NCBI RefSeq assembly: GCF_003018255.1
Contig: NZ_CP027440.1
Source: Escherichia coli
Lineage (GTDB): Bacteria > Pseudomonadota > Gammaproteobacteria > Enterobacterales > Enterobacteriaceae
Reading direction: 5' to 3' (one strand)
Length of the DNA: 64,000 nucleotides
Below the pieces are notes generated by a model. It did not search any database. It saw only the letters and a program-made list of their open reading frames with translations, and was not told the origin of the DNA. The translations under genes and the position numbers were made by a program. Shown in pieces: positions 54,919 through 59,762 of the stretch (its first letter is position 1; each line of letters starts with the position of its first letter).

Positions 54919-54932
54919 ACATATCAAATAAG

Positions 54933-54963
54933 AAAAAGGGCGGTCGGAAGATCGCCCTTTTTT
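54933..54963. terminator. intrinsic terminator between convergent pgm and potE
   Basis: aagggcg (54936-54942) / cgccctt (54953-54959), T-run 54958-54963, A-run 54933-54937. Confidence 0.8.
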
Positions 54964-54974
54964 GCTTTGCTTAA

Positions 54975-56294
54975 TTAACCGTGTTTATTTTTCAGTTCAA
55001 AGCGTGGTGAGACCAGACCATACAGTGTCCAACCGAGGAAGGTCACGATGGAACCGTATAGCATGGCTTCTTCCCCGGATGAGTACAGCGCATAAAAGCT
55101 GTACATCGCGCCAACAAAAGCAACAAAGTTTGCAACTTTCGCTTTTGAGGGGGGCACATTAGCGACCTTCTGAATAATGACTAATGCCGCCATTGACAGA
55201 ATATACGGAATGATATTGGTCACCACGGCCAGGTTAACCAGCACGTTGAACTGACTGTTCAGCGACGGGCTAATGGTCATCAGTGATAATCCGCTCTGGA
55301 TGATGACAATGGTCAGCATTCCCTGTACTGGTGCATCGACTTTGCTCACACGGGAGAAAATTTTCGGGAAGTACCCTTCATCGGCAGAAGATTTAAACAC
55401 CTGGGCAATGGTGAACTGCCAGCCAAGCAGCGAACCGCAGCAGGACATCACCATCAGCGCCATAATGACTTTACCCACTTCCGGCGTGAACATCTGCGCG
55501 AAGGCCAGACCAAATGGTGCCGTTGAATTTGCCAGCTCCATATTTGGCACAATCCCGGCAATCACGTTGGTGGAGACGATATAAATCACCGCCGCACCTA
55601 ACGTACCGCCAAGAACTGCAATCGGCACGTTACGTTCCGGGTTTTCAACTACTTCGGCGTTGGCACAGGCTGACTCCAGACCGAGGAAAGCCCACAACGT
55701 CATGGCGATGGAAGAACCTACAGCGCTAAAGAACGGCACATGGTGCGGGTTCCATGAGTTAGCGTATAGCGTCGGGCTAAACCAGAACCAGCCGATAATG
55801 CACAGACCGACGACCGGAATAATGACCCCCCACACAGTAATGCTACTGATTTGCCCGGTAATGCGCGCACCACCAAAGTTAGCCACGGTACAAATCCACA
55901 GCACTCCGATGGTCGCAAGACCAATCTGCACTGGCGACAAACTCGCGCCGAGCAGTTCGGTGCCGTAACCAACCGCCGAAATAGCAATCGCGACGTTAGC
56001 AATCAGCAGCGAGACACCGTAGGTGTAGTTCGCCATAAAGTTCCCGGATTTACCGAAAGCATACTCCGCATAACCGCCCATACCGCCTGATTTACGGCTG
56101 AACATACCGCATTTTGCGAATGCCCATGCCAGTGCCATTGAGCCTACGGCTGTCACCAGCCAGGAGATAATTGAGATTGTCCCAACTTCGGCAAGCTTTG
56201 TCGGCAGCATGATGATACCGGAGCCCATCATGTTGACCATCGTCAGTATGGTTAACTGAACGACGCCCATCTTATTCGATTTAGCCTGACTCAT
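54975..56294 (-). CDS. potE: putrescine-ornithine antiporter PotE (439 aa)
   Basis: ORF track; APC-family transporter. Confidence 0.95.
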   Translation of the reverse strand: MSQAKSNKMGVVQLTILTMVNMMGSGIIMLPTKLAEVGTISIISWLVTAVGSMALAWAFAKCGMFSRKSGGMGGYAEYAFGKSGNFMANYTYGVSLLIANVAIAISAVGYGTELLGASLSPVQIGLATIGVLWICTVANFGGARITGQISSITVWGVIIPVVGLCIIGWFWFSPTLYANSWNPHHVPFFSAVGSSIAMTLWAFLGLESACANAEVVENPERNVPIAVLGGTLGAAVIYIVSTNVIAGIVPNMELANSTAPFGLAFAQMFTPEVGKVIMALMVMSCCGSLLGWQFTIAQVFKSSADEGYFPKIFSRVSKVDAPVQGMLTIVIIQSGLSLMTISPSLNSQFNVLVNLAVVTNIIPYILSMAALVIIQKVANVPPSKAKVANFVAFVGAMYSFYALYSSGEEAMLYGSIVTFLGWTLYGLVSPRFELKNKHG

Positions 56295-58489
56295 AATTTT
56301 TCCCCTTTCAACAGGGTGCTTTGCGCATCACGAGGCTTGATGACATAGCACCAAACTTGCTTACGACCATCATGTTCTTCGATATAGACACCCTGCAGCT
56401 CTGGTGCAAAACCTGGCAGCAGGTTGATCCCTTCTTCCAGAGCGCTGAAGTAACGCAGAACAGCACCACCCCAGATTTCACCCGGAACAACACACAGCAC
56501 ACCCGGAGGATAAGGAAGCGCACCTTCGGCAGCGATACGGCCTTCTGCATCCGGCAGACGAACCAGCTCCACTTCATCGCGTAAATAGGCGTAGTTGGCT
56601 TCTTGTGGATTCATGCTTACGCGTGGGAAGTGTTCCTTACGGAACATCTCTTTTTGCAGTTGTTTCACGTTGTGACGGGCATACAAATCATGCATTTCCT
56701 GACACAACTGACGCAGGGTATAACCGGTGTAGCGCTCTTCATGCTGTTTGTAGATGGAAGGCAGTACTTCTGATAATGGCGCGTCGGACTCAAGCAGTTT
56801 TTCGAAGCGTACCAGCAGAGCAACAAGTTGCTGAAGTTTGGCCATATCTTCTGCCGGAGTCAGCAGAAAGAGGATGGAGTTAAGATCGCATTTTTCCGGC
56901 ACTACGCCATTTTCGCGCAGGAAGTTAGCAAGAATCGTCGCGGGTACACCGAACGCTTCATATTCGCCGTTACGTGCATCAATACCTGGGGTTGTCAGCA
57001 ACAGTTTGCACGGATCGACAAAGTATTGATTCTCTGCATAGCCTTCAAAAGAATGCCAGTGCTCACCTGGTACAAACTGGAAGAAGCGCAGATCAACCGC
57101 AATTTGCGCCGTTTCATACGACTGCCAGGGTTTACCATCCACCAGTTCAGGTACGAATGGACGAATATGCTGACAGTTATCGAGGATTAGTTTGCGGGCA
57201 TTAATGCCATTTACCACACAATCCATCCACATATTACGACCGCTGACACCTTCATGCATTTTGGCGTTGATATCCAGTGCGGCAAACAGCGGATAGAACG
57301 GGCTGGTGGAGGCATGCATCATAAAGGCGTTGTTCATGCGTTTGTGCGGTACATAACGCTGTTGCCCTTTGATATGGCTGTCTTTTTTATGGATTTGTGA
57401 AGTCTGGGAAAAACCAGCCTGCTGTTTATGCACAGATTGCGTAACCAGAATACCCGGATCGTTCTCATTAAGATCCAGCAACAGTGGTGAACAGTCCGCC
57501 ATCATCGGGATAAACTGCTCATAGCCGACCCATGCGGAGTCAAAGAGGATGTAGTCACACAGATGACCAATTTTATCCACCACCTGACGGGCGTTATAAA
57601 TCGTACCGTCGTAAGTGCCTAGCTGAATAACGGCGAGGCGGAAAGGACGAGCCTCTTTTGCCCGCTGCGGTGCGAATTCCGCGATCAGTTCACGCAGGTA
57701 ACTTTCTTCAAAACAGTGAGCGTCAATACCACCGATAAAACCATACGGGTTACGTGCGGTTTCCAGATAAACCGGTGTCGCGCCAGCCTGTAGCAACGCT
57801 CCGTGGTGGTTAGATTTGTGGTTATTGCGGTCAAACAGCACCAGATCACCCGGTGTCAGCAGGGCGTTTAAAACCACTTTGTTAGAAGATGAAGTGCCAT
57901 TTAAAACGAAGTATGTTTTATCGGCATTAAACACTTTTGCCGCATGTTGCTGTGCAATGCATGGCGCGCCTTCGTGAATCAGCAGATCGCCCATCGCTAC
58001 GTCGGCGTTGCACAAGTCAGCACGGAACAGCGCCTCACCAAAGTATTCCACAAACTGATTCCCCGCGGGATGGCGACGGAAAAATTCGCCGCCCTGATGA
58101 CCGGGGCAATCAAACGCGCTGTTACCCTGATTGACATAATCGACCAGTGCGCGGAAGAAGGGCGGGCGCAGTTGCGTTTCATAATGGCTGGCTGCGGTTT
58201 CTAACTGACGACCATAAAATTCTCGTCGCGATTCGCAATTCTCAAAGACACCCGAAATACGGGGCAAATACTCTGCGGGTACACGTTCTTGATTTTCAGT
58301 AGCAATAAATACCGGGATGCCATAACCCGTGGCATCGATTTCATCGAGTTTTCCGCGTGTAACATCGTTGAGCGATAAAACTATTGCCGCCACATCGATA
58401 TTACTGTTTTCATTAATATAGATACATTCTCGCTGCGTGGTAAAACAGTCCGGGCAAGAATCACTAACCGCAATTTTTAATTTTGACAT
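56291..58489 (-). CDS. speF: inducible ornithine decarboxylase SpeF (732 aa)
   Basis: Track ORF is N-extended; known start MSKLKIAVSDSCPDCF at 58489. Confidence 0.95.
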   Translation of the reverse strand: MSKLKIAVSDSCPDCFTTQRECIYINENSNIDVAAIVLSLNDVTRGKLDEIDATGYGIPVFIATENQERVPAEYLPRISGVFENCESRREFYGRQLETAASHYETQLRPPFFRALVDYVNQGNSAFDCPGHQGGEFFRRHPAGNQFVEYFGEALFRADLCNADVAMGDLLIHEGAPCIAQQHAAKVFNADKTYFVLNGTSSSNKVVLNALLTPGDLVLFDRNNHKSNHHGALLQAGATPVYLETARNPYGFIGGIDAHCFEESYLRELIAEFAPQRAKEARPFRLAVIQLGTYDGTIYNARQVVDKIGHLCDYILFDSAWVGYEQFIPMMADCSPLLLDLNENDPGILVTQSVHKQQAGFSQTSQIHKKDSHIKGQQRYVPHKRMNNAFMMHASTSPFYPLFAALDINAKMHEGVSGRNMWMDCVVNGINARKLILDNCQHIRPFVPELVDGKPWQSYETAQIAVDLRFFQFVPGEHWHSFEGYAENQYFVDPCKLLLTTPGIDARNGEYEAFGVPATILANFLRENGVVPEKCDLNSILFLLTPAEDMAKLQQLVALLVRFEKLLESDAPLSEVLPSIYKQHEERYTGYTLRQLCQEMHDLYARHNVKQLQKEMFRKEHFPRVSMNPQEANYAYLRDEVELVRLPDAEGRIAAEGALPYPPGVLCVVPGEIWGGAVLRYFSALEEGINLLPGFAPELQGVYIEEHDGRKQVWCYVIKPRDAQSTLLKGEKL

Positions 58490-58746
58490 TTTCCATCTCT
58501 TTATTTTGGGTAATAGCAGGTCCTCAATTTCTCGAATGAGAAATCGATCGTGCCGGAAAAAAAGCAAAGTTACCCCGCTGATAAATTAATCAGAAGTTTG
58601 CTTTTTTCAGAATGCAGAAACCCTTATCAGTCCGGTGGCTGATAATACAAGGGTTAACAGAGAATGAGCACTGCGGAATACAGGCATATGCCTGTAATAC
58701 AGAGAGTCAGGAAGACCTGTACGCTGAAGTGCCCTTAGTCGGTAGA

Positions 58747-58851
58747 CTAACGGGCATTGAAGAAGTGAAAGTCGAAGCTATTGCGATGAGCAAACTTCAT
58801 AATATGAGTTGTCCGCCTTATATGGGGCATAGTGCGGCTGTTATTTTCCAT
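58747..58851 (-). CDS. speFL: SpeFL, 34-codon ornithine-sensing leader peptide of speF
   Basis: Translation MENNSRTMPHIRRTTHIMKFAHRNSFDFHFFNAR; SD AGGAAAGG about 8 nt upstream; 257-nt leader before speF; not in the ORF track (below its length cutoff). Confidence 0.8.
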   Translation of the reverse strand: MENNSRTMPHIRRTTHIMKFAHRNSFDFHFFNAR

Positions 58852-59019
58852 TTAATTTACCTTTCCTGATGTGAATGAAGGTGAAGGTATTCTATCCAGG
58901 AAATACGGTTGAACTGTGAAGGTGATCAATAAAAAATGATCAATCTTAATTTATTTAATGATGAGCTTTTTACTCAGTAATATAAAATATTGAATTGTTA
59001 TTTTTGTGTGTTGTTTAAG

Positions 59020-59049
59020 ATAAAAAGCCGTATTTATTATTACGGCTTT
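59020..59049 (-). terminator. intrinsic terminator downstream of kdpE
   Basis: aaagccgta (59024-59032) / tacggcttt (59041-49), U-rich tract on the minus strand. Confidence 0.65.
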
Positions 59050-59084
59050 AATTAATAAAAGGCAGGATGTATTGAAATTAATAT

Positions 59085-59762
59085 TCAAAGCATAAACCGA
59101 TACCCAATACCGGTTTCAGTAATGAAATGGCGAGGCCGGGCCGGGTCCTGTTCCAGTTTTTGTCGCAGATGCCCCATATAAATACGCAAATAATGACTGT
59201 GTTCGACCGCGTTTGGCCCCCACACCTGGTTAAGGAGCTGGCGCTGGGTGAGCACTTTTCCCGCATTATTAAGCAACACTGCCAGCAGGCGGAACTCAAT
59301 CGGGGTGAGATGCACCTCTTCCTCGCCCCGATGGATCACACGAGCTGCTAAATCGACGGTAACATCGGAAAATTTCACCAGCGGATCGGGCGCGGCGGTG
59401 GCGGAGTGGCGACGTAAAGCGACGCGCAGACGGGCCTGCAATTCGCCAATGCCAAACGGCTTACTCAGATAATCATCCGCTCCGGCATCCAGCGCGGCGA
59501 TTTTGTCGCTCTCTTCGCTACGTGCGGAAAGCACAATCACCGGCACCGCGCTCCACTGGCGCAGGTCGCGGATAAACTCAATCCCATCACCATCGGGCAG
59601 GCCGAGATCGAGAATAATCAAATCTGGCTTACGGGTAGCCGCTTCCAGCAAGCCGCGTTGCAGCGTTTCGGCCTCAAAGACGCGCATACCGTCGCCTTCC
59701 AGCGCCGTGCGCAGAAAGCGACGAATAGCCTGTTCATCTTCAACAATCAGAACGTTTGTCAC
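59085..59762 (-). CDS. kdpE: response regulator KdpE (225 aa)
   Basis: ORF track; receiver domain [10 protein letters not shown]. Confidence 0.96.
   Translation of the reverse strand: MTNVLIVEDEQAIRRFLRTALEGDGMRVFEAETLQRGLLEAATRKPDLIILDLGLPDGDGIEFIRDLRQWSAVPVIVLSARSEESDKIAALDAGADDYLSKPFGIGELQARLRVALRRHSATAAPDPLVKFSDVTVDLAARVIHRGEEEVHLTPIEFRLLAVLLNNAGKVLTQRQLLNQVWGPNAVEHSHYLRIYMGHLRQKLEQDPARPRHFITETGIGYRFML

Follow-up and report, generated by a model that had tools for sequence, protein, structure and literature searches.

The leader peptide ORF speFL and the structured leader RNA of the speF-potE operon in an Escherichia coli genome

A 34-codon minus-strand ORF at positions 58747-58851 of the window (the 64,000-nt stretch of Escherichia coli DNA analysed here) is almost certainly speFL, the leader ORF of the speF-potE operon, and is followed by a structured 257-nt leader RNA. 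The element is already characterised, annotated and structurally solved, and nothing in its identification is new. The evidence for this assignment is laid out below, together with a comparison of the leader RNA across genera and a description of two versions of the control region found among E. coli genomes.

Identity and conservation of the leader ORF

The features on which the identification rests are as follows.

speFL, 58747-58851, minus strand: CDS of 34 codons plus UAG stop, assigned by identity to K-12 b4803 and to the solved SpeFL chain
Shine-Dalgarno-like AGGAAAGG of speFL, 58860-58867, minus strand: assigned from the sequence, with AAAGG kept at the same distance in other genera
Codons 10-16 of speFL, 58804-58824, minus strand: HIRRTTH ornithine-recognition motif, from the codon list and conservation, with its role taken from 10.1101/604074
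Rare Arg codons AGG-CGG (codons 12-13), 58818-58813, minus strand: from the codon list
speF, 56291-58489, minus strand: inducible ornithine decarboxylase and target of the regulation (TIGR04301, 1430 bits; equivalog cutoff 1310)
potE, 54975-56294, minus strand: putrescine-ornithine antiporter, following speF in the operon (NF007938, 856 bits; equivalog cutoff 409)
Antisense ORF, 58612-58869, plus strand: 85 aa, spurious, with no family match and a frame broken in 31 of 78 distinct relatives

The leader ORF begins with ATG, appears in a mechanical list of ORFs, and translates to the 34-aa peptide MENNSRTMPHIRRTTHIMKFAHRNSFDFHFFNAR followed by TAG, exactly where an earlier note made from the letters alone had placed it. 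That note described the gene as missed by the ORF track; it is indeed absent there, but only through a length cut-off, and RefSeq E. coli genomes do list the gene, as "leader peptide SpeFL". A length of 34 codons has no significance by itself, because the 8 kb around speFL contain 103 ORFs of at least 25 aa. What lifts this ORF above chance is its identity to a solved and characterised peptide, together with its pattern of conservation. The 105-nt CDS is nucleotide-identical to E. coli K-12 speFL (b4803), including the AGG-CGG pair and the UAG stop codon, and the peptide is identical at 34/34 residues to the SpeFL chain of PDB entries 6TBV and 6TC3. The comparison with published SpeFL that the earlier note had proposed, at the HIRRxxH motif and the C-terminal residues, therefore yields no difference. 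An NCBIfam scan of the 34-aa peptide matched no model, and membership was therefore judged by identity to the PDB and K-12 sequences and not by a profile.

The known hallmarks of SpeFL are all found in the window. The 34-codon ORF lies in the 5' leader of speF, on the same strand and directly upstream of it. Residues 10-16 read HIRRTTH, in agreement with the HIRRXXH motif as defined in 10.1101/604074 (which also assigns the roles of the motif and of the rare codons), with both R12 and R13 present and encoded by the rare Arg codons AGG and CGG side by side. The five phenylalanines that form the hydrophobic core of the effector domain (F20, F26, F28, F30 and F31; 10.1101/604074) are all present, and the C-terminus reads N32-A33-R34-stop. 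A purine-rich AGGAAAGG at 58867-58860, 8 nt ahead of the ATG, is a plausible Shine-Dalgarno sequence for speFL; the earlier note had called it good, and we would rate it as moderate and not strong. The Shine-Dalgarno sequence of the homologous Salmonella orf34 is given as AGGA (PMC6386406).

The genomic context is equally familiar. The gap between speFL and the speF start codon (ATG at 58489) is exactly 257 nt, as the earlier note had given it and as the RefSeq annotation also has it. The order kdpD-kdpE-speFL-speF-potE is common to the window, to one 100%-identical strain, and to K-12 MG1655. An 801-nt region around speFL has high-identity matches in 1,709 complete E. coli genomes, where the corresponding feature is "speFL: leader peptide SpeFL", and at least 80% of this region is carried by 1,696 genomes. 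Over 701 nt (58400-59100), K-12 and the window differ at 16 positions, 10 of which fall in the 257-nt leader and include two 1-nt indels; none of these differences disrupts a conserved helix, and the stop-codon hairpin described below is the same in both.

To assess conservation of the frame more broadly, one genome per species was scanned, giving 104 relatives, from which 80 loci in Enterobacterales were kept. The ORF is 34 codons long in 80/80 of these loci, and a recognisable speF follows in 79; the remaining locus stops before speF. Variation by codon position was counted over 78 distinct nucleotide sequences, and third positions vary at 30 of the 34 codons, as against 13 first and 10 second positions. 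The residues M1, E2, N3, N4, P9, H10, I11, R12, R13, T15 and H16 are invariant in all 78 sequences, as are M18, R23, F26, D27, F28, H29, F31 and N32. The arginines at positions 12-13 are encoded by AGG and then CGG or CGA in 63 of the 78.

The one ORF that the track does show here, the plus-strand ORF at 58612-58869, exists as the earlier note had described it, antisense to speFL. Were it the real gene, the 34-codon ORF on the minus strand would be incidental. It is the longer of the two, has an ATG start, and is intact in K-12. Against this, it matches no NCBIfam family and is unannotated in the RefSeq records checked; of 78 distinct relatives, 31 have its frame interrupted and none has a break in that of SpeFL; and the majority E. 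coli allele of this locus (described in the last section) places an in-frame stop in it and keeps 20/33 of its residues, versus 32/34 for SpeFL. We see practically no chance that it is a gene, and its dismissal as spurious by the earlier note stands. Separately, a 26-aa minus-strand ORF inside the leader (58607-58687) was considered and dismissed; its ATG lies in the loop of the palindrome described below, and the other E. coli allele lacks that ATG.

Conserved structure of the leader RNA

The helices of the leader downstream of the speFL stop-codon hairpin, all on the minus strand, are listed here from the speFL side toward speF.

Helix 4, 58708-58719, minus strand: CAGG-UCUU-CCUG, with 89% of cells paired, a conserved sequence and 0 compensatory changes
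Helix 5, 58679-58696, minus strand: the palindrome noted earlier, UACAGGC-AUAU-GCCUGUA, from the fold and the 52-leader alignment
Helices 6 and 7, 58619-58655, minus strand: an outer AACCCUU/AAGGGUU helix and an inner hairpin with an invariant ACCGG loop, from covariation
Helices 9 and 10, 58553-58607, minus strand: an A/U-rich stem AAAAAAGCAAA/UUUGCUUUUUU around a CUGA/UCAG hairpin, with a U-run and UCCGG; terminator-like
Helix 11, 58524-58547, minus strand: UCGAUUUCUC-AUUC-GAGAAAUUGA, shortly before the speF ribosome-binding site, from covariation
speF Shine-Dalgarno region, 58491-58501, minus strand: AAGAGAUGGAA, predicted from the fold to pair with speFL codons 28-31 (58770-58760)

The leader of the window was aligned with 51 comparably long leaders of other genera (52 in total). 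Used without guidance, RNAalifold recovered five elements from this alignment, namely the stop hairpin, the palindrome hairpin, the ACCGG-loop hairpin, the CUGA/UCAG hairpin and the helix preceding the speF ribosome-binding site (RBS). A fuller structure, specified by hand, was tested against controls in which the pairing partners were slid by 1-3 columns and against 500 shuffles. In the specified register 91.5% of cells were paired, as compared with 38-49% in the slid controls; 31 pairs were changed on both sides (9-14 in the controls), as were 205 individual cells (18-53 in the controls), and these values were reached by 0/500 shuffles. Besides the palindrome and the stop hairpin, the leader contains at least five further conserved helices, three of them with strong covariation.

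The palindrome had been noted earlier as a hairpin at 58681-58694, where CAGGCATATGCCTG forms a perfect 14-nt palindrome. With its flanking bases it makes a 7-bp stem, UACAGGC/GCCUGUA (58696-58679; -10.6 kcal/mol, z = -4.1), which is paired in 94% of cells across the 52 leaders and shows a double change at 4/7 pairs; additionally, the other E. coli allele carries a C-G to U-A compensatory change in it. The hairpin is real and conserved across Enterobacteriaceae, but the pause hairpin of the published work, which the earlier note does not mention, is a different one around the stop codon at 58730-58756. In Salmonella, where the leader is 379 nt long, about 120 nt are inserted between the strands that form the window's compact hairpin, and these separated strands lie inside the deletions named for the proximal and distal strands of "hairpin a" (PMC6386406). 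The palindrome hairpin is thus most likely the compact E. coli form of Salmonella "hairpin a".

Covariation is strong in helices 6 and 7, with double-sided changes at 12/12 pairs and in up to 27/52 sequences at one pair; within the ACCGG loop, C158, G159 and G160 are invariant. Helix 9 is 87% paired with double changes at 7/11 pairs, while helix 10 (CUGA/UCAG) is invariant and the UCCGG after the U-run is near-invariant. Helix 11 also covaries strongly; it is 97% paired and interchanges AU (27) with GC (22) at one pair and UA (23) with CG (17) at another. The ACCGG loop and the UCCGG about 75 nt downstream may, as a weaker and speculative possibility, form a pseudoknot or mark a factor-binding site and so add a regulatory layer not yet described; as both segments hardly vary, covariation carries no information on a pseudoknot.

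The MFE and centroid folds of the window each contain a long-range helix that joins speFL codons 28-31 to the speF Shine-Dalgarno region. In a duplex-energy test this pairing scored -8.4 kcal/mol, and 130/500 shuffles did as well, so by this measure it is not better than shuffled sequence. Its register in the window is unlike that in the majority E. coli allele and in Salmonella, and for Salmonella the homologous pairing that sequesters the RBS was validated by compensatory mutations (PMC6386406). Taken together, we consider sequestration of the speF RBS by such a helix in the window to be moderately supported.

The Salmonella locus otherwise resembles that of the window closely. Its orf34 also has 34 codons, the HIRRxxH motif, the AGG-CGG pair, a stop-codon hairpin and a DS region, although its peptide differs from the window's SpeFL at 4 residues, and its leader likewise has the ACCGG-loop hairpin, the CUGA/UCAG hairpin, the pre-RBS helix and the pairing of the ORF 3' end with the speF Shine-Dalgarno sequence. 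Aligned to Salmonella numbering, helix 4 of the window lies in the counterpart of the DS hairpin region (C154-U189). A scan of the 4,227 families of Rfam 15 found nothing at E <= 1 within the speFL-leader interval, and this enterobacterial leader RNA thus lacks an Rfam 15 family; the sole hit in the stretch scanned was a chance-level one to BcKCsr2 inside speF (19 bits against a gathering threshold of 40, E = 0.13).

Expected regulation and competing explanations

Regulation of speF-potE is expected to involve four further features around speFL.

Probable speF operon promoter, 58889-58920, minus strand: -10-like TAGAAT (58894-58889) and a TTCACAG box (58920-58914), from conservation
Stop-codon (RNA polymerase pause) hairpin, 58730-58756, minus strand: UGCCC(G)UUAGUC-UACC-GACUAAGGGCA, from the fold and RNAalifold
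Predicted pausing and Rho-dependent premature termination site, 58723-58726, minus strand: from alignment and the pause consensus
Candidate rut site, 58740-58790, minus strand: the C-rich, G-poor 3' end of speFL, with approximate boundaries, from composition and published work

From genus to genus, the TAGAAT and TTCACAG boxes recur at an unchanged distance. A generic sigma-70 promoter scan did not call this site. Because the mapped Salmonella transcription start lies 31 nt before the orf34 AUG (PMC6386406), we infer a start at about 58882 for the window. The hairpin at 58756-58730 encloses the 3' end of the ORF and its UAG (-15.2 kcal/mol, z = -4.1), shows covariation at its closing pair (CG 20, UG 17, UA 14), and corresponds to the hairpin around the speFL stop codon to which a role in polymerase pausing has been assigned (10.1101/604074; PMC6386406). 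The 3' end of the prematurely terminated Salmonella transcript (nt 157) aligns without indels to position 58726, and the pause consensus G-11 G-10 ... C-1 G+1 (10.1101/604074) fits mRNA nt 150-161 with a 3' end at 58723, which would place premature termination at about 58726-58723. Toward its 3' end speFL contains 28-32% C and 12-20% G in 40-nt windows; a CU-rich sequence ahead of the stop codon has been proposed for Rho (PMC6386406), and rut has been drawn overlapping speFL (10.1101/604074).

The mechanism worded in the earlier note, in which ornithine-dependent stalling prevents Rho-dependent termination before speF, is the published one (Herrero del Valle et al., bioRxiv 10.1101/604074; Ben-Zvi et al. 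2019, PMC6386406). Ornithine-dependent toeprints, a cryo-EM structure, mutants of the HIRRXXH motif and mutants of the rare codons have been reported for a K-12/DH5alpha sequence identical to that of the window, and bicyclomycin was reported to make speF expression constitutive (10.1101/604074); stalling and Rho dependence in the window would carry over from that identical sequence. Transcription would thus begin about 31 nt before the speFL AUG, RNA polymerase would pause at the hairpin enclosing the stop codon, and the first ribosome on speFL would melt this hairpin. When ornithine is scarce, the ribosome would terminate and leave, exposing the C-rich rut that overlaps the end of speFL, and Rho would then terminate transcription about 20-25 nt beyond the stop codon. 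When ornithine is abundant, one L-ornithine would be trapped between 23S rRNA and the HIRRxxH loop of the nascent peptide, as seen for residues 10-16 in the published work, where the C-terminal effector domain then blocks release-factor action (10.1101/604074). The C-terminal part of SpeFL would accordingly be expected to compact and block release at UAG, the stalled and queuing ribosomes would cover rut so that Rho cannot load, and speF-potE would be transcribed. The AGG-CGG codons would slow following ribosomes and keep rut exposed when there is no stall, in line with the reported finding that the rare R12-R13 codons stop following ribosomes from covering it (10.1101/604074).

Work on Salmonella suggests a further layer. 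There, translation of orf34 prevents Rho termination at nt 157 and opens the long-range helix that hides the speF RBS, and decay by RNase G responds to arginine under the control of the DS hairpin and a "ring-like" structure (PMC6386406). By conservation and by analogy with Salmonella, translation of speFL in the window may likewise open the helix over the speF RBS, and the downstream helices, the palindrome among them, may take part in alternative folds that affect mRNA stability. We would like to note that roles for helices 5-11 in E. coli can be proposed only by transfer from a leader of 379 nt to one of 257 nt.

The rare codons could also serve a second purpose. In Salmonella they have been shown to sense arginine supply (PMC6386406), and in the window they might do so alongside ornithine sensing without replacing it; low arginine would then cause a pause at AGG-CGG that lets the DS hairpin form and yields a stable, translatable mRNA, while with high arginine, uninterrupted translation would give a fold degraded by RNase G. 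AGG-CGG is present in the window, as are the sequence of the DS region and hairpins homologous to a, b and c, and rare Arg codons at 12-13 are widespread among relatives. However, the E. coli study (10.1101/604074) explains the same codons by slow ribosomes that keep rut exposed, the E. coli leader is without the roughly 120-nt insertion that forms much of the Salmonella "ring", and helix 4, in the DS position, has no compensatory changes to its credit. We regard this additional layer as possible but somewhat doubtful. Much less probable is an RNA switch that acts mainly without the peptide, be it a riboswitch or an attenuator whose intrinsic terminator is the hairpin and U-run at 58579-58558, and to which translation of speFL would be secondary. 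Such a switch would suit a highly structured leader with strong covariation, in which the ACCGG loop never varies and a terminator-like hairpin, with U7 behind it, is kept roughly 70 nt ahead of speF. Nevertheless, the terminator-like site (58579-58563) is putative and its hairpin weak, with three G-U pairs, the leader has no Rfam match as described above, and the authors of the Salmonella work report no intrinsic terminator in the 5' UTR (PMC6386406). In that study, loss of orf34 translation lowered transcription about 100-fold and bicyclomycin relieved this effect, which points to Rho and not to an intrinsic terminator; we therefore give an RNA switch very little credence.

Attenuation of the trpL/hisL type calls for a run of regulatory codons and for alternative terminator and antiterminator hairpins that end in an intrinsic terminator. 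The window has two Arg codons and a weak hairpin of terminator-like form with U7; however, termination in Salmonella is Rho-dependent and occurs far upstream of the position matching this hairpin (PMC6386406), and we do not file the element under the classical amino-acid attenuation leaders. TnaC of the tnaCAB operon is alike in principle, in that a free amino acid in the exit tunnel leads to a stall at the stop codon, with rut masked and Rho blocked (10.1101/604074). In contrast, there is no sequence relationship between the two peptides, the ligand of TnaC is Trp and not ornithine, and the binding sites differ; SpeFL does not belong to the TnaC family. Nowhere does the sequence argue against reading the element as speFL.

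Two versions of the control region in E. coli

In a sensitive search, E. coli genomes fell into two groups by the form of their speFL-leader stretch, with about 1,700 genomes at least 95% identical to the form in the window and about 3,300 matching it at only about 73%. The counts, out of 5,426 genomes, were 1,709 for the window form and 3,347 for the other form, the latter from a search of its own. The window and K-12 thus carry the minority form, found in about 31% of complete genomes. When the window was compared base by base with strain D6 (NZ_CP010148.1), which carries the majority form, the flanks were 95-100% identical, while a sharply bounded block of about 1.4 kb (about 59200-57800) was only 63-89% identical. 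It runs from the end of kdpE through the promoter region, speFL and the leader into speF, of which it takes in the first ~700 nt.

The majority allele occupies the same locus between kdpE and speF. Its SpeFL (WP_001312672.1) is the same at 32/34 residues, differing by S5N and T7L, and 11 other codons differ silently. Its leader is 310 nt long, with a 51-nt insertion that forms an extra hairpin nested in helix 6; it keeps all of the leader helices, while the promoter-proximal sequence differs from that of the window. The majority form resembles E. albertii, with 84% identity over the leader and an E. albertii leader of 307 nt, and the leader of the window and K-12 is closest to those of Citrobacter and Phytobacter (79-81%). 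A recent import of the K-12-type block from Citrobacter was considered and rejected, as speF itself, over its first 700 nt, is nearer to Escherichia (84-86%) than to Citrobacter (77-79%).

Mosaicism of speF is known in outline since 2006, when the gene was listed among E. coli mosaic genes (Mau et al. 2006; PMC1779527); a targeted literature search found no paper describing the regulatory dimorphism. The K-12 version might be a minority, anciently diverged haplotype, and the two haplotypes might set different thresholds or amplitudes of speF-potE induction, since they differ in promoter-proximal sequence, in two SpeFL residues, in the 51-nt hairpin and in the register and strength of the RBS helix. 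We offer this as an unlikely proposal.

As a textbook-level metabolite-sensing nascent peptide, solved at 2.7 A and annotated in RefSeq, speFL makes the finding itself of little consequence. The locus does illustrate that short leader ORFs fall under the length cut-offs of ORF tracks and that antisense "shadow" ORFs can pass for genes. What interest remains lies solely in the two-haplotype control region and in a covariation-supported leader architecture without an Rfam family; the covariation-backed map of the roughly 255-nt leader could seed the RNA family that is missing from Rfam. Mechanistic work has throughout used the allele that about one in three sequenced E. coli carry, and if the two haplotypes did differ in their induction thresholds or amplitudes, the K-12 model would not describe most E. 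coli quantitatively.

Two forms of the speF control block in E. coli

A block of about 1.4 kb (window ~57800-59200) was found to occur in two forms within E. coli, as seen when the window was compared with strain D6 (NZ_CP010148.1). It reaches from the 3' end of kdpE across the promoter of speF, the leader ORF speFL and the leader itself to ~700 nt into speF. Within the block the two forms share 63-89% identity, against 95-100% in its flanks. The form in the window, shared with K-12, is carried by 1,709 of the 5,426 complete E. coli genomes, and the other form (hereafter allele 2) by 3,347 of the 5,426. Allele 2 has a leader of 310 nt and a SpeFL bearing the S5N and T7L differences. Mosaicism of speF has already been recorded by Mau et al. 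2006 (PMC1779527).

A 10-bp helix that sequesters the RBS is found in allele 2 and in Salmonella. The window's speFL carries two silent differences, CAC for CAU at His29 and UUC for UUU at Phe31, and because of these the 10-bp helix is broken in the window. Folding predicts that 58760-58770 would instead pair with 58491-58501 in a shifted register, using the window's extra G in GAUGGAAA.

Length classes and conserved elements of the leader

Across the 80 related loci of the species-level scan (L006-L085), the distance between speFL and speF falls mainly into three length classes, the window's own leader occupying 58490-58746. Most genera have a leader of ~242-262 nt. Escherichia allele 2, E. 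albertii, Edwardsiella and Hafnia make up a class of ~304-330 nt, and Salmonella, together with some Citrobacter and Kluyvera, one of ~357-381 nt. Two extra leader segments were mapped, each to a discrete point: that of Escherichia allele 2 lies within helix 6, the outer stem of the hairpin with the ACCGG loop, and that of Salmonella lies between the two strands of the palindrome hairpin.

The ACCGG loop itself (58631-58635) is invariant and sits in a strongly covarying hairpin. About 75 nt downstream of it, directly after a U-run, is a nearly invariant UCCGG (58553-58557), and the CCGG of each element could pair with the other as a putative pseudoknot. Also conserved is an A/U-rich hairpin followed by U7 (58558-58607; scan match 58563-58579), ~70 nt before speF, which looks like a weak intrinsic terminator. 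For the Salmonella 5' UTR, an intrinsic terminator has been reported to be absent (PMC6386406).

Annotation of the locus in public databases

RefSeq annotates a 44-aa "hypothetical protein" overlapping the speFL start in the allele 2 genomes (L003, strain D6, 5921-6055; L004 and L005, 5902-6036). This ORF is named "TonB-dependent receptor" in some records, and looks like a spurious call. No HMM detecting SpeFL (window 58747-58851) was found in NCBIfam release 20, although PGAP names SpeFL, and the enterobacterial speF leader RNA is not represented by any Rfam 15 family. A 2.2-kb contig of a "Collinsella sp." MAG (L006, JAIJJM010000551.1) carries an E. coli K-12-type speFL-speF at 97-100% identity, and an enterobacterial speFL locus lies on a 647-kb contig that bears the label "Chryseobacterium sp. 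18061" (L020, CACSKA010000002.1). Each of the two looks like a case of a contaminated or mislabelled public assembly.

Neighbouring genes

Past the kdpE stop by 36 nt is a clean intrinsic-terminator-like hairpin (59024-59049, minus strand) with a 9-bp stem and a T-rich tail, presumably the terminator of the kdpFABCDE operon, insulating the speF promoter. At the potE-pgm junction (54919-54974), convergent pgm directly follows potE in the window, as in strain D6, whereas K-12 has ybfI', ybfG' and ybfP between the two genes. Strain 200164, which matches the window at 100% identity over the 801 nt surrounding speFL, carries an IS200C transposase at this junction. Within potE, window 55200-55400 and 55600-55800 show just 85-91% identity to both K-12 and strain D6, and the adjoining bins 97-99%; this pattern of sequence identity suggests that the two stretches may be further small recombination patches.
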